From assembly GCA_964431915.1 (NCBI GenBank), contig CAYSLI010000001.1, positions 47,240-111,239 of the forward strand: DNA of 64,000 bases. The letters are read 5' to 3'. This DNA is from an uncultured Candidatus Saccharibacteria bacterium (lineage in GTDB: Bacteria; Patescibacteriota; Minisyncoccia; Minisyncoccales; CAZKCU01). The notes beneath the pieces are model-generated. The model was not told the DNA's origin and made no database searches. It worked only from the letters and a program-made list of their open reading frames with translations. The translations under genes were made by a program, and so were the position numbers. Positions 12,360-32,488 of this stretch are shown here, one piece after another (position 1 is the first letter of the stretch; each line of letters opens with the position of its first letter).

Positions 12360-14063
12360 TTATTGAATCTTGCCCATTTCCTCGCTAATAGTCGGGTCAT
12401 CTGGCAAAGAGGCATTAACCGGATCGGCTGTAGCTTCCACCTTTTCTCCTGTCCAGACATCTTCTCCGATTATTCTAACCTGAGAAATAAGTTCAGGAAT
12501 CTCTCTTCTCTGGGCCGAATCAGGAGTTAAAGCAACTTGAAAGGAAATCTCAGGCTCGGGGCCCGAAATTCCTTTTCCTGCTGTTAACTCACCAATTTCC
12601 CAGACAATTTCCCGGCTCACAGAGTCAAAAGAAAACTTAGCTTCTTTTGAAGAAATTTCGCCAGTTAATCTCACCTGAAGAGGTAAATTAGCTTTAACTT
12701 TTAGATTTTTAACATCGTTGTAAAAATTTTTAGCCTGCCAAAAGATAGTATAAGTTGTTGTAGAGCCAACCCGGGGAGGAAGGGGCCCATAATTTTTAAA
12801 AGCTCCCTTGTCAAAATAACCTCTCTGAGAAATAGCCAGCTTTGTGTTAATTTTAGTAATAAATTCTTCTTTAGCCTCACTCAAGCTAATTTTAGTTTTG
12901 ATTTGAGGATTTTTGAGAGAGAAATCGTCTTTCACTCTTACCCAAAATCCAACTTTTCCTTCTTCCATACTGGATAGAAGACGTAATTGGGGAACTGTAA
13001 TATGGTCCCAGATAATTGAGTTTGAACCTTTTTGAAATTGGCCGGCTCCAGCTTGAAGAGTGTCAAAATCTAAAACTCCTCCTTCTAACTGAACTACCAA
13101 AAATAAATTTTCCAAACCTTCCTCTCCGGTATTTTTAAAGAAGACTTCGTAATACAGATAATCCCCGGGGCAAGCTGAATATTGAGGAGAATTATTAATT
13201 TGATAGGAGAGAAAAATCGAAGGTCTGGTAATTTCTATCCCCTTAGTTGTCTCTTTTAATAAAACAAATTCTCCTTCCTGCCAGATGCCTAAATTTGCCC
13301 GAAAGATTTTTGACTCTTGAACCTCTCCCCTTAGAATGCCGGAAACTTCAATTCTTCCTCCCCCAGCCTTATTTAAAAGTGGAATCTCCCATTCTGTTTT
13401 TCCTAAGGACTTTGGCTGACTCTCAAAAAACTCAAAGCCAGCAGGATATTCAATCCTTACTCTTAAATTAGAAATAGGATAATCTATATTTGAAAAATAA
13501 TTTAACCTAAAGAGAGTTTTTCTGCCAGGTTCAACTTTCGAAGGAAAATCAAATTCAAAAGTAAGAGGAACACTTTTAATTAAAGTAGTGAAAGTGGTGG
13601 CTGACTCATAGCGAGTTTTTAGATTTTTTGGTTTATAACTTAACCAAGCCTTGGCAATCTTAGCTTCATTTTCTCTACCTAATAATCTGGCTTTAAAATG
13701 GAAGGTTCTCTCTTGGCCAGGGTAGATATCCTCGAGTTCTTTTTCTTGTCTTGGAGATACTTCTTCTTGAGGCAGGGCTTCCTGATTTTCAGACCGGATT
13801 TCTTCTTCGACAACTATTGAATTTTTAGGATATTCAAAAATAAGTTTTGGCTCTTCTAACCTGATATTGCCATTATTTTTATATTTCACTATATATTCAA
13901 TTTCTTGAGCCATTTCTACTTCTTCTGGTCCCAAAATTTCCACTCTCAAAATCTCTTTGGAATAAATATTTCTTTGATAATACCAAAAACCGGCTACCCC
14001 TAAGATAATCGTTAAAATGATAATAACTTTTATTAATTTCCCCTTCATGTACCGAGCTTCCAT
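12360..14063 (-). CDS. membrane-anchored protein with repeated beta-sandwich (DUF11/CARDB-like) modules, function unknown; true start may be ATG at 14048
   Basis: N-terminal TM helix (LIKVIIILTIILGVAGFWYY) followed by repeated ~100-aa segments. The first 5 codons (MEARY) are contributed by repeat element copy A, so the start is uncertain. Confidence 0.6.
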   Translation of the reverse strand: MEARYMKGKLIKVIIILTIILGVAGFWYYQRNIYSKEILRVEILGPEEVEMAQEIEYIVKYKNNGNIRLEEPKLIFEYPKNSIVVEEEIRSENQEALPQEEVSPRQEKELEDIYPGQERTFHFKARLLGRENEAKIAKAWLSYKPKNLKTRYESATTFTTLIKSVPLTFEFDFPSKVEPGRKTLFRLNYFSNIDYPISNLRVRIEYPAGFEFFESQPKSLGKTEWEIPLLNKAGGGRIEVSGILRGEVQESKIFRANLGIWQEGEFVLLKETTKGIEITRPSIFLSYQINNSPQYSACPGDYLYYEVFFKNTGEEGLENLFLVVQLEGGVLDFDTLQAGAGQFQKGSNSIIWDHITVPQLRLLSSMEEGKVGFWVRVKDDFSLKNPQIKTKISLSEAKEEFITKINTKLAISQRGYFDKGAFKNYGPLPPRVGSTTTYTIFWQAKNFYNDVKNLKVKANLPLQVRLTGEISSKEAKFSFDSVSREIVWEIGELTAGKGISGPEPEISFQVALTPDSAQRREIPELISQVRIIGEDVWTGEKVEATADPVNASLPDDPTISEEMGKIQ

Positions 14064-14109
14064 TTATGGAAGCAAAGGTGAAGAAGAGGGCGAAGCCCTC
14101 TTCGCCTTA
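14046..14109 (-). repeat. GC-rich hairpin repeat element, copy A (long form, 64 nt), abutting the start codon
   Basis: Minus strand: TAAGGCGAAGAGGGCTTCGCCCTCTTCTTCACCTTTGCTTCCATAAATGGAAGCTCGGTACATG. Hairpins GAAGAGGG/CCCTCTTC and CTTCCA/TGGAAG. Near-identical to copy B. Confidence 0.85.
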
Positions 14110-18126: not shown

Positions 18127-19096
18127 TTTTTCTCTTATTTCTTGAATCTAAATTTTTTAATTCCTGGCAAATTTGTTTTGGCCATTTTTCTCCAAAATTT
18201 GTATCTAAAAATTTAAAATTAAAATGATTTTTGTAAAAATCTAGATAATCTTTAGTGGTAAAAGACCAAGAGTTTTTAAATTCATATGGCTGAGAAATAA
18301 TAACAGGTATTAAAAATTTATCTTTGAAAAGCGTAGGAAGCATTTTAGCAATATCAACTAGAGTCTTTTGAATCCTGTGCTGCTTACTTCTTGTTTTATA
18401 TTTAGCCTTGTGCGAAAAAATGGCAATGATAAATTCTGTCCCCTTGGGGCCTATCAATCTGAGATCGTATTCCCTTCCTTTAGGAACAAAATTAACTTTA
18501 AAACCTTGCTTTAAAGCAAACTTTAATAATTCCTTCGCATAAACCTCAATGTAGCATAAAAAGTCTTCCGTCCTTAGGTTAGTATCCTTCCATTCATTAA
18601 TATCTAGTTTTACTTTTACGGGAATTGTAACACACTTTTTATTTAAAGCCAGTGACTGAAGTTCTCTTGATAAAACTTTTGGGATGCTTTTATTTATAAC
18701 TATTTGAATATATGAATGAGTGTTATTACTTGAATATGGATAACATTGGAGCGTTAAATTTTTTTTCTTGATTCTAAAAAGTCTAACCGTCCAACCTGAA
18801 TTTTTTAAAAAAGATAGCTTAACTTGTCTCTTGCCAGAGGGTAATTTACTTGGTTTTGTCCCGAAAGCCATGCTGCTAATTCGCAAGAATATTCTCTTTG
18901 ATTTAGAAAAATATCTACTAATTTTTTTCTCAGTCTTCCATTTATATTCTCTTATCCGAGTACTCTGCTCGTAAGTTATTGAAGCAGGAATTTCTATAAC
19001 CATATTACCCCTTAAGCTTCTCTCTGAATCCTTAATCTTGTTTTCTTGCCAGAATTTTAGGATTTTTTTCTCAATTTTAGGAAAATCTATGGACAT
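18113..19096 (-). CDS. hypothetical protein: duplicated IleRS N-terminal peptide fused to an unrelated ~300-aa body with a possible PD-(D/E)xK/Hjc-like nuclease-like C-terminal half
   Basis: Starts MSIDFPKIEKKILKFWQENKI; compare the ileS start MEKYEPRKLEEMILKFWEKNRI. The C-terminal segment EVYAKELLKFALKQGFKVNFVPKGREYDLRLIGPKGTEFIIAIFSHK has nuclease-like E...D...K spacing. Overlaps both neighbours (14 nt and 10 nt). Confidence 0.5.
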   Translation of the reverse strand: MSIDFPKIEKKILKFWQENKIKDSERSLRGNMVIEIPASITYEQSTRIREYKWKTEKKISRYFSKSKRIFLRISSMAFGTKPSKLPSGKRQVKLSFLKNSGWTVRLFRIKKKNLTLQCYPYSSNNTHSYIQIVINKSIPKVLSRELQSLALNKKCVTIPVKVKLDINEWKDTNLRTEDFLCYIEVYAKELLKFALKQGFKVNFVPKGREYDLRLIGPKGTEFIIAIFSHKAKYKTRSKQHRIQKTLVDIAKMLPTLFKDKFLIPVIISQPYEFKNSWSFTTKDYLDFYKNHFNFKFLDTNFGEKWPKQICQELKNLDSRNKRKNGKI

Positions 19097-19650
19097 AGTT
19101 TTCTCAGCTCGCCAACTTCTATATGCTTTTGATCCAAAAGTTGTTCATTGTTTAAGCTCTTTACCGCTCCTTCCAAAAGCCATAAAGGGCCTCCATGACT
19201 AACAATTAAGATTTTTTTGTTTTTGTATTTTTTGTCAATCTCTTTTAAAAAATTTACCATTCTTTTTTGGCAGTCTTGCCGGCTTTCTCCGCCCGGAGGT
19301 CTTTTTATAAATCTTAATAGAGAAACTCCTGGAAAATCTTGATAAAATTCTTCTCTTAATCTTCCCTGATAAATTCCTACATTAACATCTCTTAATCTTT
19401 TATCAAAATTTATTTTTAATCCGAGCTCTTTAGCCACAATTTTGGCGGTCTGGCGCGTCCGAAAAAAATCTGAGGCAAAAATTAAGTCGATTTTTTCTTT
19501 TTTAAGTTTTTTCGCAATAGACTTTATCTGATTTTCTCCCCTTTTTGTTAATCTCACGACCGGGTTTTCTGGCCAGGGATAAGTAAAATCTTTCTTTTTT
19601 GTCTGATAAATTGTCTGGCCATGCCGCAAAATGAAATAAATATTTTGCAT
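19087..19650 (-). CDS. histidine phosphatase family protein (phosphoglycerate-mutase-like)
   Basis: RHG motif at the N-terminus (FILRHGQT) and distal SHGG (VSHGGPLW). Confidence 0.8.
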   Translation of the reverse strand: MQNIYFILRHGQTIYQTKKKDFTYPWPENPVVRLTKRGENQIKSIAKKLKKEKIDLIFASDFFRTRQTAKIVAKELGLKINFDKRLRDVNVGIYQGRLREEFYQDFPGVSLLRFIKRPPGGESRQDCQKRMVNFLKEIDKKYKNKKILIVSHGGPLWLLEGAVKSLNNEQLLDQKHIEVGELRKLCP

Positions 19651-19652
19651 AA

Positions 19653-21272
19653 TTACATTTTTTCTGGAGCGGAAATGCCCATTAGATATAAAACGTTTTT
19701 TAAAACAGTTTTAGTGGCTGAGATTAAAGCCAATCTTGCCTCAGTTAATTCTTTGTTATCTGATAAAACTTGACAATCTCTATAAAATTGGTGAAATTGA
19801 TGGGCAAGTTCAAATGCATACTGAGGTAATCTCTGAACCTGATAATCCTTTGTCGTATCCTCAACAATTTCTGGGAGTCTAATAAGTTGTTTAATTAAGT
19901 TTAACTCATTATCGTGATTTAATAATTGAAATTTTGCATTTTGCATTTTGGGTTTTGGATTTGATTTGATATTTGACATTTGGATTTTGGATTTTACAAG
20001 AATGCTATGTATTCTGGCGTGAGCATATTGAATATAATAAACCGGATTTTTTTCTGACTGTTTTTTAGCTAGAGTGAGGTCGAAATTTAAATGAGTATTA
20101 GCTGATTTTTGGAGAAAAAAGAATTTAGCAACATCAACTCCTACCTCCCGGAGTAATTCATCCATAGTAACAAGAGTTCCCCGTCTTTTTGAAATTTTCA
20201 GCTTTTTCCCTCTTTCAAGTATAGTTACAAATTGAAGCAATAAAATATCAAGTTTGCCTTTATAACCTAAAGCTTCCACTCCTGCCTGAAGACCTGCTAC
20301 ATCACCGGCATGGTCAGCTCCCCAAATATCTATTACTTTGTCAAATTTCTTCTTCTCAAATTTATAGTGGTGATAGGCAAGGTCACCTGCCAGATAAGTT
20401 TTATCACCATCCGCTTTGACTACTACCCTGTCTCTTTTGTCGTCATATTTGGAGCTTCTGAACCAAACTGCTTTTTCTTTTTGATAAATTAAATTTTTCT
20501 GCTCCAAAATCTTCAAAACTTTGTCTACTTGGCCGCTCTCGTGAAGGGTTTTTTCTGAAAACCACTCGTCATAATTAATCCCCATTCTGTCGGTTGTTTT
20601 TTTAATCATCTCATCAATAATAATTTTGCCAGCTCTCTCACCTGCCTTATGGGGCTCTTTTTCTTTGATTCTTTTGGCAAGTTCATCAATATATTTACCT
20701 TTGTATTTTGCCTCTTTGTCTTCCAAAATAGAATGTCCCAGAGCTAAAATTTGCATCCCGTAATCATTAATATAGTAAGCTTTTTCTACTTTAAATCCCA
20801 CTTTTTCCAGAACGTTTCCCAAAACGTCACCAAAAGGACCGCCTCGAGCATTGCCGACAGTTAGAGGACCTGTTGGATTTGCCGAAATAAATTCTACCTG
20901 GACTTTCTTTCCTTTGCCAATATTTAACTCACCAAACCTCTCTCCCTTCTTTAAAATTTCTCCAATTCTCTGTTGTAAATATTCTTTTGAAAGAAAAAAA
21001 TTAATAAACCCTGGTTTGACTACCTCAACTTTGTCAAAAAAATCAGATTTGAGACCTAAGATTTGAGATTTGAGATTTTCTGCTGTTTCCAATGGGTTTT
21101 TATTTATTTCCCGCCCGATTACCATCGCCGCGTTTGTGGCATAATCTCCGTGGGGCTTTTGTTCTGAATATTCTATCTGAATTTCAGGGATATCAATTTC
21201 TGGCAAAATTCCTTTTTTTTGGAGTAATTTTGTTGATTTTTCTATTAATTTTTTAATTTCTTCTCTTGCCAT
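19653..21272 (-). CDS. argS: arginine--tRNA ligase
   Basis: FISANPTGPLTVGNARG (HIGH-region equivalent). Add-1 N-terminal domain. C-terminal DALR anticodon-binding domain ending ...GISAPEKM. Confidence 0.95.
   Translation of the reverse strand: MAREEIKKLIEKSTKLLQKKGILPEIDIPEIQIEYSEQKPHGDYATNAAMVIGREINKNPLETAENLKSQILGLKSDFFDKVEVVKPGFINFFLSKEYLQQRIGEILKKGERFGELNIGKGKKVQVEFISANPTGPLTVGNARGGPFGDVLGNVLEKVGFKVEKAYYINDYGMQILALGHSILEDKEAKYKGKYIDELAKRIKEKEPHKAGERAGKIIIDEMIKKTTDRMGINYDEWFSEKTLHESGQVDKVLKILEQKNLIYQKEKAVWFRSSKYDDKRDRVVVKADGDKTYLAGDLAYHHYKFEKKKFDKVIDIWGADHAGDVAGLQAGVEALGYKGKLDILLLQFVTILERGKKLKISKRRGTLVTMDELLREVGVDVAKFFFLQKSANTHLNFDLTLAKKQSEKNPVYYIQYAHARIHSILVKSKIQMSNIKSNPKPKMQNAKFQLLNHDNELNLIKQLIRLPEIVEDTTKDYQVQRLPQYAFELAHQFHQFYRDCQVLSDNKELTEARLALISATKTVLKNVLYLMGISAPEKM
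19932..19998 (-). repeat. ~7-nt-period repeat block (ATTTTGC/ATTTTGG/ATTTGAT units, ~10 units) in frame inside argS
   Basis: attttgc attttgc attttgg gttttgg atttg atttgat atttgac atttgg attttgg attttac. Translated as ...KSKIQMSNIKSNPKPKMQNAKFQ... Confidence 0.9.
21047..21080 (-). repeat. heptanucleotide repeat (ATTTGAG units) in frame inside argS N-terminal domain
   Basis: atttgag acctaag atttgag atttgag attttc. Translated as ...ENLKSQILGLKSD... Confidence 0.85.
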
Positions 21273-21310
21273 CAGTTTCAGATTATCATATTTTCTGCTA
21301 AACTTAAAGT

Positions 21311-21760
21311 ATGAAAATTTTAGCTAAAAACAAAAAGGCTTATTTTAATTATGAAATCCTGGAAAATTTTGAGGCAGGAATTTCTTTGATTGGCCAGGAA
21401 GTGAAATCAATAAAAACAAGGGGAGTGAGTTTGGCAGGTTCATATGTGGTTTTGAAAGACGAGGAAGTTTTTTGGATTGGGCTTAATATTCCTCCTTATC
21501 AGCCAAAAAATGCGCCAAAAGATTATAATCCAGCGAGAACACGAAAACTTCTTCTTAAAAAATCAGAAATTAAATATTTAATTGGTAAATCAAAGCAAAA
21601 AGGCTTGACTTTAATACCCCTTAGGTTATATACTAAAAATGGGAAAATAAAGTTAGAGTTCGGAACAGCAAAAGGAAAGAAAAAAGCTGATAAAAGAGAA
21701 TTAATTAAAAAAAGGGAAATAGAAAGACAAATTAAAAGAGAATTAAAAATGCGGGGATGA
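21311..21760 (+). CDS. smpB: SsrA-binding protein SmpB
   Basis: 149 aa. N-terminus NKKAYFNYEILExxEAGIxLxGxEVKS is the canonical SmpB signature. Followed directly by tmRNA. Confidence 0.95.
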   Translation: MKILAKNKKAYFNYEILENFEAGISLIGQEVKSIKTRGVSLAGSYVVLKDEEVFWIGLNIPPYQPKNAPKDYNPARTRKLLLKKSEIKYLIGKSKQKGLTLIPLRLYTKNGKIKLEFGTAKGKKKADKRELIKKREIERQIKRELKMRG

Positions 21761-22102
21761 CAGGGTTCGATGAGGAATTAACTAAAATAAGCAGGTTGAG
21801 TATTCTCAAATCTCATTAAACTTTGAGAAAAACAAAAATAAGTGCCAACTTATTTTCTAAACCTGCTTTAGCTTATGCTTAAAGCAGCATCCTCTTTGCT
21901 GATTCTCGATAGGTAAAGCTGGGTGTAATATTCATCGAGATAGACAAGTTTCGTTGTTTCGCGAACTTGTCGAAAAAAAAGAGACAAATAGTGGTACTAG
22001 GTTTTGTCTGTTTGATCCAGTATTCCAAAATTAAAACAGAACAAACTTGTAGAATTATTTTAGAAAAATTCCTCAGATGGGACTTCGATGTCCCCATCTC
22101 CA
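21753..22102 (+). ncRNA. ssrA: transfer-messenger RNA (tmRNA, ssrA), ~350 nt; tag ORF 21844-21879 ANLFSKPALAYA, stop TAA 21880-21882
   Basis: The 5' GGGGAUGACAGGGUUCGAUG pairs with the 3' ...GGGACUUCGAUGUCCCCAUCUCCA. This forms a tRNA-Ala-like acceptor stem with a G3:U pair and a T-arm. The internal resume frame GCC AAC ... GCU UAU GCU UAA ends in LAYA, like canonical tags. Adjacent to smpB. Confidence 0.85.
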
Positions 22103-22136
22103 CAACACCTCCCCAAATAAAAAGAGAAAGGAAAAT

Positions 22137-22664
22137 CTGTTTAAAAGACCATTAGTCAACAACCGAATAAGGGCTCCTCAGGTCAGGGTGATTGACAAGA
22201 CCGGAAAACAGCTGGGAATTTTGCCAATTGGAAAAGCGCTCCAGATAGCTAGGGAGCGTAATTTAGATTTAATTCAAGTCACCGAGAAGGTAATGCCACC
22301 TGTCTGTAAAATAATGGATTACGGGAAGTATCTTTATCAAGAAAAAAAGAAAGAAAAGTTAGCTCCAAAAAGTTCGGGTGAGTTAAAAGGGATAAGATTA
22401 GGGTTTGGAATTTCTCAACATGACTTGGAAGTCAGGGCAAAGTTAGCAGAAAAATTTTTAAAAAAAGGGCATAAAGTCAGAGTAGAACTAATCTTAAGGG
22501 GTCGGCAAAAAGCCCTTCCTGATTTTGCCAGAGAGAAAATGAACCAATTTCTTAGAATTTTAGAAGGGATTTTACCAATAAAAATTGAGCGGGAATTGAA
22601 AAGAGAGTCAAGAGGTTTTACAACAATAATCTCAAAAAGCAAAGAGGATAAATCCTCTTCTTAA
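22137..22664 (+). CDS. infC: translation initiation factor IF-3; start codon uncertain (non-ATG, CTG 22137 proposed)
   Basis: NNRIRAPQVRVIDxxGxQLGI...PPVCKIMDYGKYLYQ is canonical IF-3. The only in-frame ATG (22077) lies inside the tmRNA 3' end. IF-3 genes classically use atypical start codons. AAGGA lies 4 nt upstream of the CTG. Confidence 0.88.
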   Translation: MFKRPLVNNRIRAPQVRVIDKTGKQLGILPIGKALQIARERNLDLIQVTEKVMPPVCKIMDYGKYLYQEKKKEKLAPKSSGELKGIRLGFGISQHDLEVRAKLAEKFLKKGHKVRVELILRGRQKALPDFAREKMNQFLRILEGILPIKIERELKRESRGFTTIISKSKEDKSSS

Positions 22665-22674
22665 GCGAAGTAAG

Positions 22675-22857
22675 ATGAAGACACGGAAATCTATATTAAA
22701 ACGTTTTAAATTTACTAAAACCGGCAAGGTCTTAAGAAGACCAACCGGTCTTAGTCATTATCGAGCAAAAAAATCCGGGAAAAGAATTAGAAAAAGCCGA
22801 AAATTGGTTGAAGTTTCAAAAGCTGAAACTAAAAAAATAAAGCGACTGTGTCGCTAA
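22675..22857 (+). CDS. rpmI: 50S ribosomal protein L35
   Basis: 60-aa basic protein, MKTRKSxxKRFKxTxxGKxxRRxxGxSH pattern. infC-rpmI-rplT operon order. Confidence 0.95.
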   Translation: MKTRKSILKRFKFTKTGKVLRRPTGLSHYRAKKSGKRIRKSRKLVEVSKAETKKIKRLCR

Positions 22858-22869
22858 CTTAAAGAAATT

Positions 22870-23217
22870 ATGGTCAGGGTAAAACGAGGAAAAATTGCTC
22901 ACAAAAGAAGAAAGCATTTATTAAAATATGCCAAAGGTTTCAGCTGGGGAAGAAAGGCAAAATACCGAGCAGCTAAAGAAGCTTTACTTCATGCCAGGTC
23001 TTATAGCTACCGAGACAGAAGAGTTAAAAAAAGAGATTTTCGAAAACTCTGGCAAACTAAAATTAATTCTGCCTGCCGCCAGGCAGGAATTTCCTATAGC
23101 CGATTCATTGCTGGCTTAAAGAAAAATAAAATTGAGCTAGATAGAAAAATCTTAGCTACTTTAGCTCAAAACCATCCAAAAATCTTTGGGAAAATAGTAG
23201 AGAAGGTAAAAAGTTAA
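22870..23217 (+). CDS. rplT: 50S ribosomal protein L20
   Basis: MVRVKRGxxAHKRRKxxLKxAKGFxGxRxxxYRxAKE canonical L20 N-terminus. Confidence 0.97.
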   Translation: MVRVKRGKIAHKRRKHLLKYAKGFSWGRKAKYRAAKEALLHARSYSYRDRRVKKRDFRKLWQTKINSACRQAGISYSRFIAGLKKNKIELDRKILATLAQNHPKIFGKIVEKVKS

Positions 23218-23242
23218 TCCTTACTTTATTTTTCGAAAATTA

Positions 23243-23268
23243 AAAGTCCGCACTTGAGTGCGGACTTT
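23243..23268. terminator. bidirectional rho-independent terminator between rplT and the convergent PurF-like gene
   Basis: 11-bp perfect stem AAAGTCCGCAC-TTGA-GTGCGGACTTT flanked by A/T runs. Confidence 0.7.
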
Positions 23269-23281
23269 ACTAATTAGGCAT

Positions 23282-24685
23282 CTACCTAAAGTATTTTGAT
23301 ATCAAATCTTCCCCGGTAAAACAGCACATGCAAATCTCCTTGTCGGGTTTCAGAGGATTTTCTTTCTTTCTCTCCTCACTTTGGGCTTCTTCTATTGATT
23401 TAAGGTAATCTTCTCCCGTATTAAACTCTAAAGTTGCCACTCCTAATTTTCGTCTCATTTCTTCTCTGGTGTTATTTACCGCAAATAAGTCTTTTGTGTA
23501 TCTCAAAGGAACTTCTAAAGAACAAGCTTTTATTTTAGGAGGACAAGCTATCCTTAAATGCAAAGGGATATTTTCTTCTAATACCGGATGAAACTTCTTC
23601 ATTAGCGCAACTATCCTAAAAAGGCGGGTCATAAGCTGGTTGGCTTCCACAATAGAGTCATCAACCATAATAATTCTCTTGAAAGCCCTTAGTACCCATT
23701 CAATTGGTAGGAGTTTACCTTTCCCCCTCTCTTTTCTTCCCTGCTTTAGGATGTCAAGGAAGCTGCGGCCAAATTGAGAATTATATTGCCAGACATTCAC
23801 CAATGGAATTTTTGACTCAAAGGCATAGCCCTCAGCAGCTGATATTCCGGAAAGGGGAAATGGAGAAACAATTTCAGCTTCTACCGGGTGTTGCTGAGCA
23901 AGTTTCACTCCCATATTAAACCGAGCCTTTCCTACATCAATCTCCTCAAAAATACTGGACGGACCAACGTAGTAGCCGAATTCAAATCCGCAAAGAGCTG
24001 AAATTTCCGGGTTCTTTTCTGGCAATATCTGCTCCAATGTATTAAATCCAGTAGAATTGATTTCAATAATCTCTCCGCGCTTTACCTCTCTTACAAGCTC
24101 CATTCCGATTTCTGGGAAAATAGCTGATTCGGTAGCCACCGCGCAACCACCTTCCTTTTTATTTCTTCCAATAGCTAATGGTTTAAAACCTAAAGGGTCT
24201 CGACAGGCGAAAACACCATCAGGTGTAAGCATCACCAAATTAAATCGGCCCTTGACGCTCTGAAAGATGTTCTCAAACCTCTCTACTGGATTTTTCCCTT
24301 GTGAAGCTAATCCAGCACAAATTTCAAGGTCTGAACCTCCAAGATAAGGAAATTTTTCTCGGATTTCTCCGCGGTTGGCTATTTTTATATTTCCAGCGAT
24401 GGAAAAAGCTTCTCGTCCAGCTTCTTCTCTTAAAATTGGCTGTTCGTTGCGGATCCAAACACCTCCGATAGCTCTTTGCCCCTTTTTGATAGTTGGATAT
24501 TCCTGTGCTTTTTTGTCAAAAAACGGTCGGACCAAGCCAGAAGTAGTAGCTTTTTGGATTTTCCCCTTATCAAAAATTGAGAATCCGCCGCCGCTATCTC
24601 CCCGGGTAGGCTGAAGAAGGCTTGTTCCCCATTTCAATTCGTTCCAGCAGTTTCTATCTAAACTTATTCCAAATATTCCAGCCAT
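23282..24685 (-). CDS. amidophosphoribosyltransferase (PurF)-like protein lacking the catalytic Cys1 and the PRPP-loop RGTT
   Basis: Collinear with PurF by eye (DPLGFKPL, ATESAIF, GISAAEGYA, MVDDSIV, C-terminal CMCCFTGE). It starts MAGIFGI instead of MCG(I/V)FGI and has DDSIVEANQ instead of DDSIVRGTT. Confidence 0.7.
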   Translation of the reverse strand: MAGIFGISLDRNCWNELKWGTSLLQPTRGDSGGGFSIFDKGKIQKATTSGLVRPFFDKKAQEYPTIKKGQRAIGGVWIRNEQPILREEAGREAFSIAGNIKIANRGEIREKFPYLGGSDLEICAGLASQGKNPVERFENIFQSVKGRFNLVMLTPDGVFACRDPLGFKPLAIGRNKKEGGCAVATESAIFPEIGMELVREVKRGEIIEINSTGFNTLEQILPEKNPEISALCGFEFGYYVGPSSIFEEIDVGKARFNMGVKLAQQHPVEAEIVSPFPLSGISAAEGYAFESKIPLVNVWQYNSQFGRSFLDILKQGRKERGKGKLLPIEWVLRAFKRIIMVDDSIVEANQLMTRLFRIVALMKKFHPVLEENIPLHLRIACPPKIKACSLEVPLRYTKDLFAVNNTREEMRRKLGVATLEFNTGEDYLKSIEEAQSEERKKENPLKPDKEICMCCFTGEDLISKYFR

Positions 24686-24725
24686 TTCTCTACCTCCTTT
24701 TTCTTTATTTTGTTTTGTTAAATAA

Positions 24726-24974
24726 CTAATGACTCTCTTTTTTTAATAACTCAATTTTTCTTTTTTGTCCATATTTATAGCCACCAATTTTACCATCTGA
24801 TCTAATTACCCGATGGCAGGGAATTTTTGGGTCTCGATTTCTGTTTAAAATGTTCCCAACTGCCCGCCAGGCCTTCGAAGAACCAGCCATTCTTGCTACT
24901 TCTCTATAAGTTAAAAAACTCCCCTGGAGAATTTTTTTAACAATTTTAAAAACTTTCTCTCTAAAAAGAATCAT
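24726..24974 (-). CDS. ogt: methylated-DNA--protein-cysteine methyltransferase, DNA-binding/active-site domain only (MGMT family)
   Basis: 82 aa with the active-site IPCHRVI motif and TYxEVA helix-turn-helix. Confidence 0.85.
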   Translation of the reverse strand: MILFREKVFKIVKKILQGSFLTYREVARMAGSSKAWRAVGNILNRNRDPKIPCHRVIRSDGKIGGYKYGQKRKIELLKKESH

Positions 24975-25810
24975 TAATTTTTGGCCCGATGAATTACTAT
25001 TTGGGGAAAAGGAATTTCAATGCCCTCTTTGTCAAAAGAAATCTTAATTCTTTTTCGAAGTTCGCCAGTAATACCCCATTGTTTTAAAGGTTTAGTTTCT
25101 CCTAATATCTTTATTATTATTGCTGACTCACCAAAATCATTGACTCTTAAAAATTGAGGGGGTTTAATAATGCTCCCTTTCCATTCTGGATCTTCGGCTA
25201 ATTTTTTCCCAACTTTATTTACAACTTTAATGACCTTTTTTAAATCCTCTTTGTAAGACACGCCGATATTAAGATTGACTCGCGCAAACTTTTTCGATAA
25301 ATTTGAGGATTTTTTGGTTCCGCCGTTGGGAATATTATGAACGGTTCCATCTAAATCGCGCAAAATGGTTTTCCTTAAGGTTATACTCTCCACTAAGCCG
25401 CAGGTTCCGTCCAAACAAACCACATCCCCTTCTCGATATTGATTTTCAATAATTATAAAAAGGCCAGCTAAAAAATCGCGGATCATATACTGGGCGCCGA
25501 AGCCTAAGGCTACTCCTAAAATTCCCGCTCCAGCCAATATTGGAGTAACGTTTATTCCTAATTCAGGCAAAGTCATCATTATCGCCATTAACCAAAGAGC
25601 AATTTTCAAGGCACTAGTAAAAACCCCAATTAAAGTATTCTGCCTTTTCCCCGTTGCCTCTTTGCTGGTGTCTTTCACTCCTTTTTTAATTATCCTCTCA
25701 ATAATTTTCCTTCCGATTCTACCAATGAAATAAACAGTAATTAAAATAATCAAAATCTTTATCCCGTGGGCAAGAAACCAGCTGATTAATTTTGGAATAA
25801 TATTTTCCAT
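24974..25810 (-). CDS. small-conductance mechanosensitive channel (MscS family)
   Basis: 3 N-terminal TM helices, pore helix GFGAQYMIRDFLAGLFIIIENQYREGD, then the beta domain. Confidence 0.85.
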   Translation of the reverse strand: MENIIPKLISWFLAHGIKILIILITVYFIGRIGRKIIERIIKKGVKDTSKEATGKRQNTLIGVFTSALKIALWLMAIMMTLPELGINVTPILAGAGILGVALGFGAQYMIRDFLAGLFIIIENQYREGDVVCLDGTCGLVESITLRKTILRDLDGTVHNIPNGGTKKSSNLSKKFARVNLNIGVSYKEDLKKVIKVVNKVGKKLAEDPEWKGSIIKPPQFLRVNDFGESAIIIKILGETKPLKQWGITGELRKRIKISFDKEGIEIPFPQIVIHRAKN

Positions 25811-25816
25811 ATTATT

Positions 25817-27064
25817 TTATGATAGCAATTCTTTAAAAAGTTTTAAATAGTCTCTTAAAAGCCTTGGCATTAAAAACTTTTCTCTAACTGTCTCTCTGGC
25901 ATCTTCTCCTAAATTTTTAGCTAGTTGAGGATTTTTAAGAAGCTGAGTAATTCTTTTTGCCGCTTCTTTGGGGCTAGAAACCAAAAATCCGTTTTTCCCG
26001 TCTTTAATCTGAAGTTTTATTCCCTCTCCCTTTCCACCAATAACTGCTTTTTCTTTCCACATCGCCTCGCTTAAGCTAAGACCAAATCCTTCCCTGGTTG
26101 AATTTTGGACAATAACATCAGAGGCAACTTGAATAGCATTGACAAAAACGTGGACTTTTAAACTGCCCAACATTTCCGGCTTAGAAAAGAGAAAGATGTC
26201 AGGGTCTTTTTCTGTTTTCTTTTTAATAAATTTAAAAATTTTCATTGCTTCTGGATCATCTTTGGCTAAGAAAAAACCAACCAAAGCCAGTTGTAAGTCA
26301 GGAATTTTCTTTTTGGCAATTTGATAGGCCTCAATTAGTTCTAAATATCCCTTCCAAGGGTCAAAACGGGAAACCTGGGAAATCAATCGCCGAGAGGAAT
26401 CTATTCCATATCCTTTTAAAATCTCTTTTGAGTAATCCAAATTTAGAGGTTGATTTTTGGGACTCAAAGGATTAATGGCCGGCGGAAAAACTACTGCCCT
26501 TTCTTTAACTTCCTTTTTAACATACTTCTTTGAGCTAAAGACAATTTTTTCATACATTCCAAAAATTCCGGCAAAAAATTTCCAAGTTTCGGGATTTGGA
26601 GACGTTAAATCAATATGTAACCGACAAATCGCCGGATGAAGATGGGGTAAATATAAAATTAAACCGGCTGGTTGAGGGTCGTGTATTACCCAAATATCAG
26701 CTTTCATATTTCGCATTAAAGAGGCACTTCTCTCTATATGCTCTAAATATCTTACCCGATGCCAAAAAGGAATGGAATATTTTTCGCCTTGAAGGGCATT
26801 GTGAATTTTTTTGGTAATCTTAAAAAAATCCTCTCTTGGTGGAACAGTACGCCACTCAGTTCTTATTCCCACTCCTTTCATTAAAGGAACCAGGTTTTTT
26901 AAAATTTCAGCCACCCCACCGCCCCGAGGAGTAGCATTAACGTGAGAAACTTTTAGCCCTTTAGAATATTTAGCCAATTCTCTTATTTCTTCAAAAAGCG
27001 CTTCAGAAATTAATTCTTTATATTCTTCTAATTTTTGAGTTGGAGTTTTAACTAAAGGAAGCAT
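25817..27064 (-). CDS. GT4 glycosyltransferase, trehalose synthase (TreT)-like
   Basis: N-terminal HVNATPRGGGVAEIL motif typical of TreT-type enzymes. C-terminal GT-B EGFGLSxxEAMWK motif. Confidence 0.72.
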   Translation of the reverse strand: MLPLVKTPTQKLEEYKELISEALFEEIRELAKYSKGLKVSHVNATPRGGGVAEILKNLVPLMKGVGIRTEWRTVPPREDFFKITKKIHNALQGEKYSIPFWHRVRYLEHIERSASLMRNMKADIWVIHDPQPAGLILYLPHLHPAICRLHIDLTSPNPETWKFFAGIFGMYEKIVFSSKKYVKKEVKERAVVFPPAINPLSPKNQPLNLDYSKEILKGYGIDSSRRLISQVSRFDPWKGYLELIEAYQIAKKKIPDLQLALVGFFLAKDDPEAMKIFKFIKKKTEKDPDIFLFSKPEMLGSLKVHVFVNAIQVASDVIVQNSTREGFGLSLSEAMWKEKAVIGGKGEGIKLQIKDGKNGFLVSSPKEAAKRITQLLKNPQLAKNLGEDARETVREKFLMPRLLRDYLKLFKELLS

Positions 27065-27542
27065 GTTTTTCTAAAAATTGGTGGGCTTTTTTGAGAGTTT
27101 CTTTGGCGTTTTCAAAAGTTAATTTTTTTATTGCTTTTTCGTAGAGCAACCATTCAAAACCGAGATGTTCAAAAGAAACTTTAATGTCTTCTTCTTCCGT
27201 TTCTGCTAAATAAAAAGTAACAAATTTCAGAATATTTTTTCCTTTAAATTTAAAGAAATATTTTATCCGCTCTTTAAAGCCTTCTAAGAATTCAATGTCT
27301 TTCAATCCAGTTTCCTCTTCCACTTCTCTTCTCACAGTTTCAATTTCCTTTTCCCCCTTTTCAATATGGCCTTTGGGTAAATCCCAATATTCTCTTGCTG
27401 CTTTAGGCGAAGAGGGTAAACCCTCTTCTTTACCCTTCGCTGCGGCTCGGGTAGCTAAAGAAGGATAGTGTAGTAATAAATATTTTATTTTTTTGTCCTC
27501 TCGGCGGAAAATTATAGCTCCGGCTGATTTTTCTAAAGGCAT
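27048..27542 (-). CDS. NUDIX hydrolase carrying an in-frame insertion of repeat element copy D
   Basis: Nudix box GHIEKGEKEIETVRREVEEETGL. The segment ATRAAAKGKEEGLPSSPKA is encoded by the antisense of the repeat element. Confidence 0.85.
   Translation of the reverse strand: MPLEKSAGAIIFRREDKKIKYLLLHYPSLATRAAAKGKEEGLPSSPKAAREYWDLPKGHIEKGEKEIETVRREVEEETGLKDIEFLEGFKERIKYFFKFKGKNILKFVTFYLAETEEEDIKVSFEHLGFEWLLYEKAIKKLTFENAKETLKKAHQFLEKHASFS
27403..27453 (+). repeat. GC-rich hairpin repeat element, copy D (short form), antisense and in frame inside the Nudix gene
   Basis: TTAGGCGAAGAGGGTAAACCCTCTTCTTTACCCTTCGCTGCGGCTCGGGTA. Shares GGCGAAGAGGG..CCCTCTTC and CGCTGCGGCTCGGG with the other copies. 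Confidence 0.85.
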
Positions 27543-27544
27543 AG

Positions 27545-29257
27545 TTATTTGAAAAATTTCAACAATTTCTCAAGTGGTTGGGTGTTAATTATATCTCTTT
27601 TCTCTGCCCAGCCGCGGCGGGCTTGGGCAATTCCAAATTCAATAAATCTCATTTGGTCCCGGTGGTGAGCGTCAGTATTGATTACCATTTTCACTCCAGC
27701 CTCTTTTGCCCGACGAATATTCTGGTCGTTTAAATCTAATCTTTCCGGACAAGAATTAATTTCAAGAATTACCCCGAATTGCTTGGCTGCTCTTAAGAGC
27801 TTATCAAAATCAATCTGATATTCGTCTCTTCTTTTCAATATTCTTCCAGTCGGATGGGAAATAATTTTAATATAGGGATTTTTCATTGCCTGAATAATTC
27901 TTTCGGTCATTTCCCCCTTTTCCATTTTAAAACTGGAATGAACTCCGGCTATGGCATAATCTAATTTTTTTAATGCCTCGTCTTTAATATCAATTGAACC
28001 GTCATTTAAAATGTTTGTTTCTGCTCCCTGTAAAATTTTGAAATTTTTGAATTTTTGATTTAATTTGTCTATTTTTTTTCTTTGCAAAGCTAATCTTTTT
28101 TCATCCAAGCCATGCTCAATCCTTAAAAATTTAGTATGGTCAGTGATTCCCAAATATTCATGTCCCCTTTTCATCGCAGTTTCGACCATTTCCAAAATCG
28201 AATTATGACCGCCATTCCATTTAGAGTGAGTATGTAAATCTCCTTTAATATCTTCCAGTTCTACTAACTTTGGCAGTTTTCCCTTCAGGGCTACTTTAAT
28301 TTCTCCCTGGTTTTCTCTTAATTCAGGGGGTACCCAAGCCATCCCTAAGACTTTATAAACTTCTTCTTCATTCCTCCCGGCAATCTGTTTCTCCCCCCGG
28401 AAAACTCCATATTCATTCAGTTTTAAGCCTTTAGCTATGGCAATTTTTCTGGTGGCGATATTATGTTCTTTTGAACCAGTAAAATATTGGAGAGCCGAAC
28501 CATAAGATTTAGCTGACACCACTCTAATGTCCATATCAAAACCCTCTTTCATCTTTACCGATGATTTAGTCTTGCCCTTGCCCCAAATTTTAATCACTCT
28601 GGGCAGAGAAACAAAAAAATCCATAACTTTCTCTGGATTTTTGGAAATTACCAAAAAATCGACATCGCCGATGGTTTCTTTCATCCTTCTGACAGAACCC
28701 GCTGGATCAACTTTTTCAACTTCTTTTAGGTTTTTTAATTTTTCATAAACTTCCTTAACAACCGGAAGAATTTCTCCCAAAAGAAACCTTCCCTTACTTC
28801 TCTTTAAAAAAGCTATCCCCTCCAAGATATTTTTTTCAGTTTTTTCCCCAAAACCGAAGAGAGGAGCAATTTTGTGAGTTCTGGCTGCTTTCTCTAAATT
28901 TTTTAAATTTCTAATCCCTAATTTTTGGTATAACACCTTCACCTTTTTTGGGCCCATTCCCTCCACAGCTGCCAATTCTTCGAGATCCAAGGGAGTTTTT
29001 CTCTTAAGTTCCTGGTAATACTTTATCTTCCCCTTTTTTAAATATTCTTCAATTTTTTCAGCAATGTTTTTTCCAACGCTAGGAATTTTTTCTAAAGCCT
29101 GCCTTCCTCCCTCTTCATAAATTTCTTCAACATCTTCCTCCAAGGTTTCCAAAGTCAGGGCTGCTTTCTCATAAGCATAGGGTTTGAAAGCCACTCCTTC
29201 CATCTCAAGATATTGGGCTATCTTATATAATATTTTAGCTATTTCCTGATTTTTCAT
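27545..29257 (-). CDS. polX: DNA polymerase X family protein with C-terminal PHP phosphoesterase domain (PolX)
   Basis: N-terminal HhH/8-kDa and pol-beta nucleotidyltransferase (GSVRRMKETIGDVDFLV). C-terminal PHP (DLHTHSxW...GITDH...NTDAH). Confidence 0.9.
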   Translation of the reverse strand: MKNQEIAKILYKIAQYLEMEGVAFKPYAYEKAALTLETLEEDVEEIYEEGGRQALEKIPSVGKNIAEKIEEYLKKGKIKYYQELKRKTPLDLEELAAVEGMGPKKVKVLYQKLGIRNLKNLEKAARTHKIAPLFGFGEKTEKNILEGIAFLKRSKGRFLLGEILPVVKEVYEKLKNLKEVEKVDPAGSVRRMKETIGDVDFLVISKNPEKVMDFFVSLPRVIKIWGKGKTKSSVKMKEGFDMDIRVVSAKSYGSALQYFTGSKEHNIATRKIAIAKGLKLNEYGVFRGEKQIAGRNEEEVYKVLGMAWVPPELRENQGEIKVALKGKLPKLVELEDIKGDLHTHSKWNGGHNSILEMVETAMKRGHEYLGITDHTKFLRIEHGLDEKRLALQRKKIDKLNQKFKNFKILQGAETNILNDGSIDIKDEALKKLDYAIAGVHSSFKMEKGEMTERIIQAMKNPYIKIISHPTGRILKRRDEYQIDFDKLLRAAKQFGVILEINSCPERLDLNDQNIRRAKEAGVKMVINTDAHHRDQMRFIEFGIAQARRGWAEKRDIINTQPLEKLLKFFK

Positions 29258-29898
29258 TTTTCTTCGCGATGGAAAATGTCTTTAAGAGAAAAATGTATGC
29301 CATGATCAAAAACCCCCTTTATTTGATTTCTTAAACCAAAAAGCAGGGTCACTCCAATTAAACCAAGAATTCCCACTACAACAAGAACTGGAGTAAAACC
29401 AAGCCGGGTTACTGCCCAACCACCAATTGCTCCAGCAGCCCCTGTTCCCAAGCCAAGGGAGGTAGCATTTAAACTCCATTCAGTAGCTTCTCTGCCTTTG
29501 TCAATGTGGCGAGTAAAAATGGCTGTCCAACCACTAAGGCTCATTGCCAAACCTAATCCATGAAATCCTTGTAAAACATAGAGAGATAGGGGAGTTCTAA
29601 TAAAAATAAACCCAAAAGGAATTAAAGCTGTAATAAAAAGTCCGGCTACCAAGCTAAGATAATCATCTTTTTCTGAAGGACAAGTATCTAAAAAAACTCC
29701 AAGGGGAACTCTTAATAAGGACCTTGTAATCCAAAAAATAGCAGAGGCAATACCAACAACAAAAGCATTCCCTCCTTCAATTCTTTCGACAATAAAAATG
29801 GCAAAAATTGGGGTGAGTAATCCCCAACCGGTCCAAAAGGCCAAATCGCTTAATATTAAATATTTTATAACCCGATTGGGTAATAAAGAAATTCTCAT
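29254..29898 (-). CDS. six-TM MFS-like half-size membrane protein
   Basis: 214 aa with 6 hydrophobic helices and an RxxLRVPLGxxLD loop resembling the MFS motif A. Only half the usual MFS length. Confidence 0.45.
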   Translation of the reverse strand: MRISLLPNRVIKYLILSDLAFWTGWGLLTPIFAIFIVERIEGGNAFVVGIASAIFWITRSLLRVPLGVFLDTCPSEKDDYLSLVAGLFITALIPFGFIFIRTPLSLYVLQGFHGLGLAMSLSGWTAIFTRHIDKGREATEWSLNATSLGLGTGAAGAIGGWAVTRLGFTPVLVVVGILGLIGVTLLFGLRNQIKGVFDHGIHFSLKDIFHREEK

Positions 29899-29955
29899 TT
29901 TAAAGAAAGCCCGCCAGGCAAAATCAATAGTAATTTAATAATTTAACCGACAGAC

Positions 29956-30360
29956 TTAAGCATGAATTATTTTTACCAATATTTTTCTTTCTCTCGGCCT
30001 GTTATCAAAGTCAATTAAAACAAGATTCTGCCATTGACCCAAAACTAATTCTCCATTTTCGATTGGAACTGTTAAAAAGGGCCTAATCAAAGCCGATCTA
30101 ATATGAGAGGGAGCATTTTTATCTCCCCAGGTTTTATCATGTCGATAGGACCTATTCGATGGAGAAATTTTTTCTAAAAATTCTTTAAAGTCCTCAATTA
30201 AATTTGGTTCAGCCTCAATTGTAGTTAAACCAACAGTTGAACCGGGAGAAGATATTAAACAGACTCCATCTTTTACTTTGGAATTTTTAACAATTTCTGA
30301 AATTTTATCAGTAATATCAATAATGTCGTTGAAACCTTTGGTACTAATCACAAAACTCAT
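29956..30360 (-). CDS. YjbQ/UPF0047 family protein (secondary thiamine-phosphate synthase type)
   Basis: 134 aa. PSHIRSALIxxxLTVPIxxGxLxLGxWQxLxLIDFD is the family signature. Confidence 0.85.
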   Translation of the reverse strand: MSFVISTKGFNDIIDITDKISEIVKNSKVKDGVCLISSPGSTVGLTTIEAEPNLIEDFKEFLEKISPSNRSYRHDKTWGDKNAPSHIRSALIRPFLTVPIENGELVLGQWQNLVLIDFDNRPRERKILVKIIHA

Positions 30361-30415
30361 ATTATTTTATTCTACCAAAAAATACCTGATTGGCAATTTT
30401 AGAGAATTAGAAAAT

Positions 30416-30449
30416 CGGTAAAAACCTCGGTTCAATTAAGGACCGAGGT
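30416..30449 (-). terminator. rho-independent terminator after the DUF1858 gene
   Basis: 8-bp stem ACCTCGGT/ACCGAGGT, followed on the minus strand by TTTTT. Confidence 0.6.
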
Positions 30450-30523
30450 TATTTATTTACTATCGAATCCCTAGCATCTCTTTACTTAGTTTTATCTTAC
30501 TCTTTTGACTTAAATGGAAAATT

Positions 30524-30733
30524 TCATTTTTTAATTGCTTTATTTAAGTCTTTCAAAAACTTTTTTAGGTCAATCTGATGAAGCTTAACTGCTTCTTCAA
30601 TCGTCTCTGGTATTGCCATCGGGCAACCAACGCAATGGAGTCCATAATCAATAAAAACAAAAACTGTCTTTGGGTATTTTTTGATAACCTCTTCAATAGT
30701 CATTTCTTTTGCAATGACTGCTTTTTTGTTCAT
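30524..30733 (-). CDS. DUF1858-type small redox/disulfide protein (hybrid-cluster-protein-associated family)
   Basis: 69 aa. TIEEVIKKYPxTxxVFxxYGLHCVGCPMAxxETIEEA matches the DUF1858 pattern. Confidence 0.7.
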   Translation of the reverse strand: MNKKAVIAKEMTIEEVIKKYPKTVFVFIDYGLHCVGCPMAIPETIEEAVKLHQIDLKKFLKDLNKAIKK

Positions 30734-30753
30734 ACAAAATTTACAATGACTTC

Positions 30754-31713: not shown

Positions 31714-31762
31714 ACCCGAGCCACAGGCGTCAGGTGAAGAAGAGTAAACATTCTTCGCCTAA
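31711..31762 (-). repeat. GC-rich hairpin repeat element, copy C (short form), ending on the PGI/PMI start codon
   Basis: Minus strand: TTAGGCGAAGAATGTTTACTCTTCTTCACCTGACGCCTGTGGCTCGGGTATG. Occupies most of the 63-nt intergenic spacer. Confidence 0.8.
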
Positions 31763-31776
31763 CTTTTATTCCCCCT

Positions 31777-32403: not shown

Positions 32404-32435
32404 ACTTCATTCAATTTTACCACAGACTCAACGAA

Positions 32436-32461
32436 TTAAAAAGAGAGGAAAAATCCTCTCT
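32436..32461 (-). terminator. rho-independent terminator after greA
   Basis: 8-bp stem AGAGAGGA/TCCTCTCT, followed on the minus strand by TTTTTAATT. Confidence 0.6.
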
Positions 32462-32488
32462 AAATAATGTGAGATAATTGAAATTGTT

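Follow-up and report, generated by a model that had tools for sequence, protein, structure and literature searches.

Genomes of candidate phyla radiation (CPR) bacteria, also called Patescibacteria, are tiny and gene-dense and are usually called poor in mobile DNA. A stretch of 64,000 nucleotides (nt) from an uncultured bacterium deposited as Candidatus Saccharibacteria (assembly GCA_964431915.1, contig CAYSLI010000001.1, positions 47,240 to 111,239 of the forward strand; the whole stretch is hereafter termed the window) carries a dispersed family of short, GC-rich hairpin repeats. In all probability, these repeats are copies of a very small, non-autonomous, selfish mobile mini-element of CPR bacteria of the Nealsonbacteria/Parcubacteria type, of the same kind as the Rickettsia palindromic elements (RPEs) and the repetitive extragenic palindromes (REPs). 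No description of it was found in the literature on palindromic elements, MITEs (miniature transposable elements with inverted repeats), RPEs or repeat elements of CPR bacteria, Patescibacteria, Parcubacteria and Nealsonbacteria; the element is apparently undescribed so far.

RPEs are short, hairpin-forming, non-autonomous repeats of a reduced genome, which are located in-frame in housekeeping genes as well as in intergenic regions, add a peptide to the host protein and have no known transposase (PMC10969869). The element of the window is also palindromic and is accommodated in-frame within open reading frames (ORFs) without disrupting them, as seen for copy D in a Nudix gene and copy E in a 5'-3' exonuclease gene. 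RPEs of about 100-150 bp form about ten families in Alphaproteobacteria (Rickettsia), whereas the element comprises 48-57 nt, about one-third of that size, and resides in CPR bacteria. Its sequence is presumably unrelated, being set apart from RPEs without direct comparison to their consensus sequences. Further differences are the defined target motif, the exact ends, the tandem and nested arrays, and the size classes that are split between coding and intergenic sites. On these similarities, the element would be classed as behaving like an RPE analogue.

REPs are GC-rich imperfect palindromes of 20-60 nt with compensatory stem variation, highly repeated and occasionally found within genes. Their unpaired tag, GTAG or CGTC, is kept in >90% of the family members (PMC3733652). 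The element resembles REPs in being a GC-rich palindrome without terminal inverted repeats or target duplications. An identity with tagged REPs was rejected, because the tag is missing in most copies: GTA^G (the caret marks the junction) precedes 11 of 114 element copies, TA^G 32 and A^G 76, and neither CGTC nor GACG is present at either end. Within the element, GTAG arises only across tandem junctions (...CGGT^AGGC...). A REP is a single stem-loop of 20-40 bp, whereas the element comprises two distinct covarying hairpins and a closing ACC/GGT helix. REPs are mostly extragenic, lie downstream of genes and often form inverted dimers; the element is arranged head-to-tail and is found before gene starts or in ORFs. 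REPs are mobilized by a REP-associated tyrosine transposase (RAYT), whose gene is part of the same genome and usually has repeats on either side. A RAYT gene was matched neither in the window nor in 733 kb of loci, the 8-kb pieces as which the host genomes were read (numbers with the prefix L).

Elements of the IS200/IS605 group and palindrome-associated transposable elements (PATEs) insert without target duplication at a short specific motif, carry subterminal hairpins and a target-like motif at the other end, and are gained and lost seamlessly. The element likewise inserts without duplication, beside ^NNN-T-R-A-W, a motif that recurs in the element itself. The IS200/IS605 transposase TnpA recognizes two similar hairpins, whereas hairpin 2 of the element is hypervariable or nearly missing. 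IS200/IS605-type elements usually exceed 100 nt and are cleaved directly after a target of 4-5 nt, whereas the element is cut 3-4 nt from its motif. Their strong replication-orientation bias contrasts with an apparently weak one in the element (134:95), and no TnpA was detected in the loci.

MITEs, e.g. Correia, ERIC and RUP, share with the element the small size, the lack of autonomy and the dispersed distribution, and are sometimes co-transcribed or fused to ORFs. Classical MITEs possess terminal inverted repeats and fixed target duplications. The element has neither, and an identity with MITEs was rejected on these grounds. Its 5' end, AGGCGAAGAG, is unrelated to the reverse complement of its 3' end, ACCGAGC...

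Anatomy and fold of the unit

The unit starts with A-GGC, followed by hairpin 1 (GAAGAGnnn/nnnCTCTTC), the linker TTCACC-TTCG, the hypervariable hairpin 2, CTCGG(G) and a final T. Two size forms occur. The long form has 57 or 54 nt; in the short form of 48 nt, hairpin 2 is cut down to GC-TGCG-GC. Unit lengths range from 45 to 66 nt with modes at 48, 54 and 57 nt. The length is divisible by three in 75 of 114 copies, a proportion whose strength is overstated by the nominal p-value, since the copies are not independent.

Copies A (14051-14107, minus strand) and B (54874-54930, plus strand) in the window are long forms of 57 nt, copies C (31714-31760, minus strand; 47 nt) and D (27405-27452, plus strand; exactly 48 nt) are of the short type, and copy E (50107-50154, plus strand) is a divergent short form with a 48-nt period. 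Every window copy folds into the same two hairpins, with hairpin 2 closed by ACC...GGT. Hairpin 2 is a true stem in A and B (GCTTCCA-TAAA-TGGAAGC) and the stub GC-TGCG-GC in D and E. Folds of A to D are stable (z = -2.5 to -5.2), while copy E on its own does not exceed its shuffles in stability (z = -0.56). In hairpin 1, the base is conserved. Hairpin 2 varies in sequence and length or is nearly missing, yet it is always paired, e.g. GCTTCCATAAATGGAAGC, GTCCCGCnnnGCGGGAC and GCCCCGCCCCCCACGTGGGGGCGGGGC.

A nucleotide profile (nhmmer) built from the five window copies matched only those five and was thus circular. It was replaced by a covariance model drawn mainly from other genomes. The training set consisted of 31 long-form copies, namely A, B and 29 copies from other loci, of which 28 originated from other genomes and one was the orthologue of B in a near-identical strain. 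In a structure-blind MAFFT alignment, 92.9% of the cells were paired, two-sided changes occurred in 11 of 22 pairs, and double-change cells numbered 72 against 21.5 in shuffles. Among 150 model-aligned hits, an alignment biased toward the model structure, double changes were found in 19 of 22 pairs (516 cells against 156 in shuffles). Among the stem mismatches, 30 were G-T or T-G and 46 were A-C or C-A. A sense-strand RNA would tolerate G-U pairs, which should appear as a G-T excess. Since no such excess was seen, a DNA palindrome, or a structure with a role on either strand, is indicated rather than a sense-strand RNA.

Gain and loss between strains

The near-identical strain is represented by a JGI contig of 79.8 kb (L001 and L122). 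It is collinear with the window over about 38 kb (window 19034-35658 and 39353-60475) at 96-99% identity. Copies B and C and a decayed remnant at 22.6 kb are common to both strains. Copies D, E and a divergent copy at 47.3 kb occur in the window only, whereas three copies are found in the near-identical strain only: F in front of tsaE, and G and H at the 3' ends of a histidine kinase gene and a Nudix gene, respectively (H, 48.5 bits). Six of the nine element sites thus differ. No further indels of 9 nt or more were present within the aligned blocks.

Copy C and the remnant correspond to L122 3899-3956 and L122 14949-15015, respectively. The site of copy D is empty in L122, reading TTTAGCAAAAGCAGC, where the window has TTTAGCT, 48 nt of element and AAAGCAGC. 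Copy E is missing from the 98%-identical protein P0003 as well as from the DNA (L001 10660-10710, GAGATCGAAGAAGAAGAAAAT), and the 47.3-kb copy is missing from L001. The complete 639-kb Nealsonbacteria genome CP179888.1 (loci L014 and L063) has an empty site for copy A, L014 2590-2602, which reads AAAATAGATTAA^AATGAAAGGG. Copy B is old, because it is present at the same fpg/holA junction in L001 and in CP179888 (L063). The reverse situation was observed at window position 33696, which is empty where L056 holds one unit and L070 two different units. Orthologous sites in L110 and L069 are filled by different variants. Copies are gained or lost much faster than the flanking sequence changes.

Insertion site

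Six pairs of filled and empty sites were compared: A/L014, L091/L017, L092/L007, L072/L013 and L100, L056/window 33696, and D/L122. In each pair, the filled site is longer by a single, exact A-GGCG...CTCGG(G)-T unit (or one ending in C), 57 or 48 nt in length, and the junction is ambiguous by 1 nt at most. A target-site duplication was found in none of the six. A register-by-register comparison of 5' and 3' flanks revealed no copy-specific identity past the motif described below, except for 1-2 nt in short forms. Models of a TA duplication and of a 14-nt duplication were consequently dropped as general rules.

The 3' flank of long forms reads nnn-T(80%)-G/A-A(93%)-A/T, with TGAA, TGAT, TAAA and TAAT as the commonest words; short forms are followed by nnn-R-A-n-G-A. 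The insertion point is located 4 nt upstream of a conserved T-R-A-W (TGAA or TAAA). This motif already exists in the empty sites (AAATGAAAG, ATATGAG, AAAAGAA and AAATAAA) and therefore represents a target preference, not a part of the element. The usual landing sites are consequently gene starts of the type ATGAA(A) and GAA-rich coding stretches. As ATGAA pre-exists in empty sites, the link to start codons is attributed to the target preference together with survival in the sole non-coding DNA, and not to a shared leader.

The element is its own target. Its start, A^GGCGAA, carries the target motif, which accounts for tandem head-to-tail arrays with periods of 57, 48 and 45 nt (L062, L033, L061 and L107). 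On the opposite strand, the internal TTCACCT^TCG presents this motif again. At least 11 elements hold a second element, reversed, exactly after TTCACCT, as is explained by this internal motif.

Distribution of the family

A strict pattern, GGCGAAGA-N6-14-TCTTCTTYACC-N8-30-CTCGG, was drawn from blocks shared among the copies. It matched copies A, B, C and D in the window (four against 0.00 expected from 100 shuffles). Applied to one genome per GTDB species, the pattern yielded at least 114 stretches. The matches listed belong mostly to Candidatus Nealsonbacteria, including CP179888.1 and a LacPavin metagenome-assembled genome (MAG); others among them come from Parcubacteria and Paceibacter, from a single WWE3 MAG and from MAGs that carry the label Saccharibacteria. 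The organism of the window is itself placed among Nealsonbacteria/Parcubacteria by the homologues of its exonuclease. Matches in high-GC genomes (Acidimicrobiaceae, Actinomadura and others) and two matches in Bacteroides lack the hairpins and were discarded as chance or conserved coding sequence.

With a cutoff of E <= 0.001, the covariance model matched 297 times across 723 kb of Nealsonbacteria/Parcubacteria loci. Densities reached one copy per 2-3 kb in these loci, which had been picked for containing the element and are biased upward in this respect. The window was not selected for element content and its density is free of that bias: it holds six clear copies and one or two remnants in 64 kb, about one per 8-10 kb. 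Scans of phage and plasmid collections found no copy, and viral contigs of IMG/VR gave only two matches, both high-GC and due to chance. In Rfam 15, the window matched transfer-messenger RNA (tmRNA) and tRNA only; the best weak match to copy A was ylbH with 19.8 bits against a threshold of 50. The family is large, structured and restricted to CPR bacteria of the Nealsonbacteria/Parcubacteria type.

Copies in the window

The original prediction, made from the letters of the window, described five GC-rich hairpin repeats. All five were recovered at the given positions with the letters as quoted, and a 14-mer that D and E had been said to share, CGCTGCGGCTCGGG, is indeed common to both. It had also placed a start codon directly after A, B and C, which is correct. 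Copy A (87.6 bits), a single unit A-GGCG...CTCGG-T, is flanked by the stop of recO (14127) and the ATG of the next gene (14048), with its end 3 nt before this ATG. Copy B (81.6 bits), at the fpg/holA junction, contains the stop codon of fpg (TAG, 54888-54890), and the holA ATG (54933) follows 3 nt past CTCGG. Copy C (27.5 bits) is located between the stop of an HD-domain gene (31777) and the ATG of a phosphoglucose isomerase gene (31713), directly before the latter. A Shine-Dalgarno-like run, AAGGGGG, precedes copy C.

Copy D (44.8 bits) is antisense within the Nudix gene (27048-27542, minus strand), to whose product it contributes 16 residues (TRAAAKGKEEGLPSSP). Copy E (17.8 bits, E = 0.003) lies sense and in frame in the 5'-3' exonuclease gene (49432-50391), adding EEDEPSSLSSAAARE. 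It is flanked by a 14-nt direct repeat, GAGATCGAAGAAGA, at 50104-50117 and 50152-50165, spaced exactly 48 nt. The G+C content is 44-55% in the copies and about 34% in the window as a whole.

Four degenerate relatives had been suggested in addition. One of them, 47340-47385 on the minus strand, belongs to a probable divergent copy (47342-47407, minus strand; model match 47333-47409; 17.8 bits, E = 0.003). It is an exact 66-nt insertion relative to the near-identical strain at the 3' end of a gene for a T2SSE/PilB-like ATPase, whose last two codons and stop it replaces. The other three (47257-47277, 34745-34790 and 56157-56175) went undetected by the covariance model and did not stand. The model revealed a copy absent from the original prediction, the decayed remnant at 22635-22701 (plus strand, 21.9 bits), which retains hairpin 1 only (GCAAAGAGGATAAATCCTCTTCTT) at the 3' end of ORF 22077-22664. 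Its flanks align to those of a full, orthologous copy in L102 (7245-7306).

Copies in genes and between genes

Long forms are mostly intergenic, and 22 of 68 end within 3 nt of an ORF-opening ATG, so the association with start codons is genuine. Among the short forms, 16 of 38 lie in frames open over 150 nt or more to either side, with the reading GGC GAA GAA GAT AAA TCT... (GEEDKSSSLPFAAARV) or, reversed, TRAAAKGKEEDLSSSP, the two readings used by D and E. The in-gene frames are mostly GEEDKSSS... or the reverse TRAAAKGKEE... One frame per orientation encodes a hydrophilic peptide, in units that are mostly multiples of three. Because of these lengths and open frames, short forms survive in genes as insertions of 16 residues, while long forms persist in the few intergenic bases, typically just before ATGAA starts.

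Distant exonuclease homologues have related inserts at the E site (EEDKSSSPPFTAAR), one of them with two in tandem, and another homologue carries an insert elsewhere. Most Nudix homologues comprise 146-148 amino acids (aa) without insert D; variants of it are present in some, and a tandem pair in one. Many unrelated proteins contain the peptide motif GEEDKSSSLPFAAAR, which also recurs in tandem. The exonuclease structure predicted by AlphaFold, intended to locate insert E on the protein surface, had a mean pLDDT of 49.5, too low to be used. A stand-alone Cas4-like nuclease of the PD-(D/E)XK type, bearing a cluster of cysteines at its C-terminus, is repeatedly found near copies (L093 141-912, minus strand, and four related loci). 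Its C-terminus itself carries element-encoded peptides (EEDKSSSS...), and the nuclease is regarded as a recurrent neighbor only.

The element alters the length of housekeeping proteins, namely the 5'-3' exonuclease and the Nudix hydrolase and, elsewhere, cysteinyl-tRNA synthetase (CysRS) and the Cas4-like nuclease. It rewrites gene ends, as in the fpg stop, and parts genes from their upstream sequence. For annotation, it accounts for recurrent low-complexity inserts of the type 'EEDKSSS...AAAR' and for odd start-codon calls in CPR proteins. It is also usable as a strain-level marker in CPR population genomics.

Mobility and alternative explanations

The original prediction had left two readings side by side, a dispersed structured element of the REP/RPE type and a shared cis-regulatory RNA. 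The former is supported, specifically in its RPE-like version, by hundreds of copies in related CPR genomes, by presence and absence at orthologous sites, and by in-frame, tandem and nested copies. Two outcomes that had been named as fatal to the repeat family, no further copies in a wider scan and no covariation, did not occur: the covariance model found many further copies, and the stem pairs covary heavily. A search of Rfam, also proposed there, matched no family at threshold. The initial observation is thereby confirmed, and the finding exceeds what was claimed from the letters.

A mobile element with exact ends raises the question of its enzyme. An HUH-type single-strand route is put forward because the element leaves no duplication, has subterminal hairpins, repeats a short target motif at its far end and is gained and lost seamlessly; by analogy it is possible, though on balance doubtful. 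In this route, an enzyme provided in trans would cut a single-stranded, hairpin-folded intermediate, in keeping with the HUH/Y1 logic of IS200/IS605 and RAYT-REP systems. In reverse reading, the target would be TTC-R-NNN^ and the element end TTCGCCT^. More speculative, and rather unlikely in its full extent, is an ultra-small mobile class with codon-quantized unit lengths (48, 54 and 57 nt) and an open frame per orientation, hence in-frame by construction. It would be moved by a CPR enzyme cutting 4 nt upstream of TRAW and would be a major driver of variation in protein length and operon junctions in Nealsonbacteria, with a turnover outpacing point mutation.

Several results weigh against a mobile element moved in this way. 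No transposase was present among the Pfam-annotated genes of the window, including flanking and unannotated ORFs, and of the syntenic loci. A tblastn search of the 733 kb of loci with an IS608 TnpA sequence as query found nothing; a weak match in L023 proved to be a GtrA-like membrane protein. Clustering of 903 ORFs adjoining copies returned only housekeeping families and no recurrent candidate. The hypervariability of hairpin 2 is awkward for an enzyme that recognizes both ends. IS200/IS605 elements recognize their target through an internal guide beside a hairpin. The internal TTCA can pair with TGAA in the flank (76% paired), yet its C/T variant does not covary with the G/A of the target, leaving this pairing without covariation support (p = 0.49, with few T variants). 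With respect to GC skew, the sense strand coincides with the G-rich strand in 134 cases and opposes it in 95 (p = 0.012), a weak bias that gene orientation confounds. The patterns of presence and absence fit gain or precise loss alike, as does the patchy insert at the E site among homologues. Copy E, which has a 14-nt host duplication and whose own 5' arm is host sequence, and copy F, with a few extra duplicated bases, are not clean duplication-free insertions. An autonomous long version was sought among the partial hits; these proved to represent short forms or elements that contain nested insertions.

In the main alternative, an improbable one in our estimate, no dedicated enzyme is involved: template switching in replication, microhomology-mediated repair or gene conversion would copy the unit from another locus to sites with the GAAGA/TCTTC microhomologies, and direct repeats would later permit precise deletion. 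The lack of a transposase in the window and related loci and the 14-nt host duplication around copy E agree with it, and the proteins encoded nearby include a PolX polymerase and a flap 5'-3' exonuclease. The 3' flank resembles the 5' end of the element (GGCGAAGA-like after short forms, TGAA after long forms), and nested junctions have 3-4 nt in common with the host element. Microhomology should, however, give variable ends, whereas identical, exact unit ends recur at numerous unrelated sites and leave no more than 1 nt ambiguous. Beyond the motif, the two flanks of one copy are no more alike than the flanks of different copies, and the 11 or more nested insertions are independent events at a single nucleotide position. 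A pasting by reverse transcription of an RNA, or of a copy resembling multicopy single-stranded DNA (msDNA), is very improbable. msDNAs are short hairpin single-stranded DNAs, a retron-type reverse transcriptase island exists in the near-identical strain, and the duplications that flank E and F vary in length. Against this, the island is missing at that locus of the window and contains nothing element-like according to the covariance model, so it was rejected as mobilizer; the non-coding RNA sequence of the retron has no link to the element, and most insertions lack a duplication or an A-rich tail.

Two further explanations were weighed. A functional RNA, i.e. a 5' leader, a translation-initiation or operon-junction structure, an mRNA stabilizer or a weak terminator kept for regulating the downstream gene, would account for the long forms ending at start codons, for the stable folds of A to D and for the retention of B at the fpg/holA junction across genomes with about 75% identical proteins. 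Hairpin 1 with the T-rich tail of A (CTCTTCTTCA) even passes a lenient terminator scan; B, however, is not called a terminator, a true T run is missing, and sense-oriented copies are located inside essential genes. Both orientations occur in such coding sequence, near-identical strains differ in the presence of copies before the same genes, G-T mismatches are no more frequent than A-C, and Rfam matches remain far below threshold. In the flank, conservation rests on the A that follows TG (93%) and not on the start codon as such, and TAAA and TAAT flanks are also common. The cis-regulatory reading of the original prediction is accordingly disfavored, and a regulatory RNA as the primary nature of the element is unlikely; old copies such as B may have been co-opted. 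The least credible explanation is a protein-coding module, in which a useful repeated peptide (GEEDKSSSLPFAAAR) spreads and the DNA hairpins are incidental. It is consistent with the same peptide in many unrelated proteins, also in tandem. Yet the same DNA yields two unrelated peptides in its two orientations, long forms are mostly non-coding, the stems covary at the nucleotide level whatever the frame, and inserts are dispensable in orthologues of 93-98% identity.

The reading as a mobile mini-element is preferred to these explanations. Its anatomy is well supported; the family would be an active one, its mobilizing activity being put down to candidate routes only. For mobile-DNA biology, it provides a minimal substrate (exact ends, no duplication, a target offset by 4 nt, self-targeting) in the search for a new transposition or repair activity, in organisms not yet amenable to manipulation.

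Other features of the window

A separate insertion of the classical MITE type occupies 64 nt at 49361-49424, just upstream of the exonuclease gene. It has 20-nt terminal inverted repeats, CCCAGTAGAAGAATTTCGAC/GTCGAAATTTCTCTACTGGG, with TAAA on both sides, is missing from L001 and is the only copy in the window. Between the genes for the PilB-like ATPase and a ComEA-like protein, a 125-nt region (47205-47335, minus strand) has ends that form a 19-bp helix, AACCCCGGAGCAGGGGGCC...GGCCCCCAGCTCCGGGGTT. The region has a very stable fold (-63 kcal/mol, z = -8.1), is kept in L001 and L002 and has no Rfam match; it may represent either a structured RNA of a new kind or a further element with inverted repeats.

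The retron-type island of the near-identical strain (L122 5145-7119) spans 1.9 kb and is missing from the corresponding window site (30424-30516). It comprises a 356-aa reverse transcriptase (PADLOC RT_II-A/III-A, ~1e-46), a structured upstream region and an unannotated ORF of 113 aa. L001 lacks 160 nt inside the S20 gene (55894-56154, minus strand; window 55962-56122), which leaves an ORF of 55 aa and is either a real deletion or an assembly difference.

The genes dnaA and dnaN are located at 38848-41551. The window probably spans the replication origin, because gene orientation and GC skew switch sign at about 38-48 kb. A tandem array of about 5-6 copies of a 15-nt unit, GTTTCCTCTGCGGGA, is present at 44804-44910, just downstream of the tyrosyl-tRNA synthetase gene. 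The tmRNA identified by Rfam (21753-22105, 110 bits) lies beside smpB and was unreported by ARAGORN.

Exonuclease and Nudix homologues carry other in-frame inserts with unrelated peptides, i.e. TPPTHHPKRM/SPTHYPKRM, TRHPPKGPL, PKPRSRVNSLRG and ATRAKRRGGFAELRSSLTPRFAWTDEAPASA. These peptide sequences suggest further families of small coding insertions in these bacteria.

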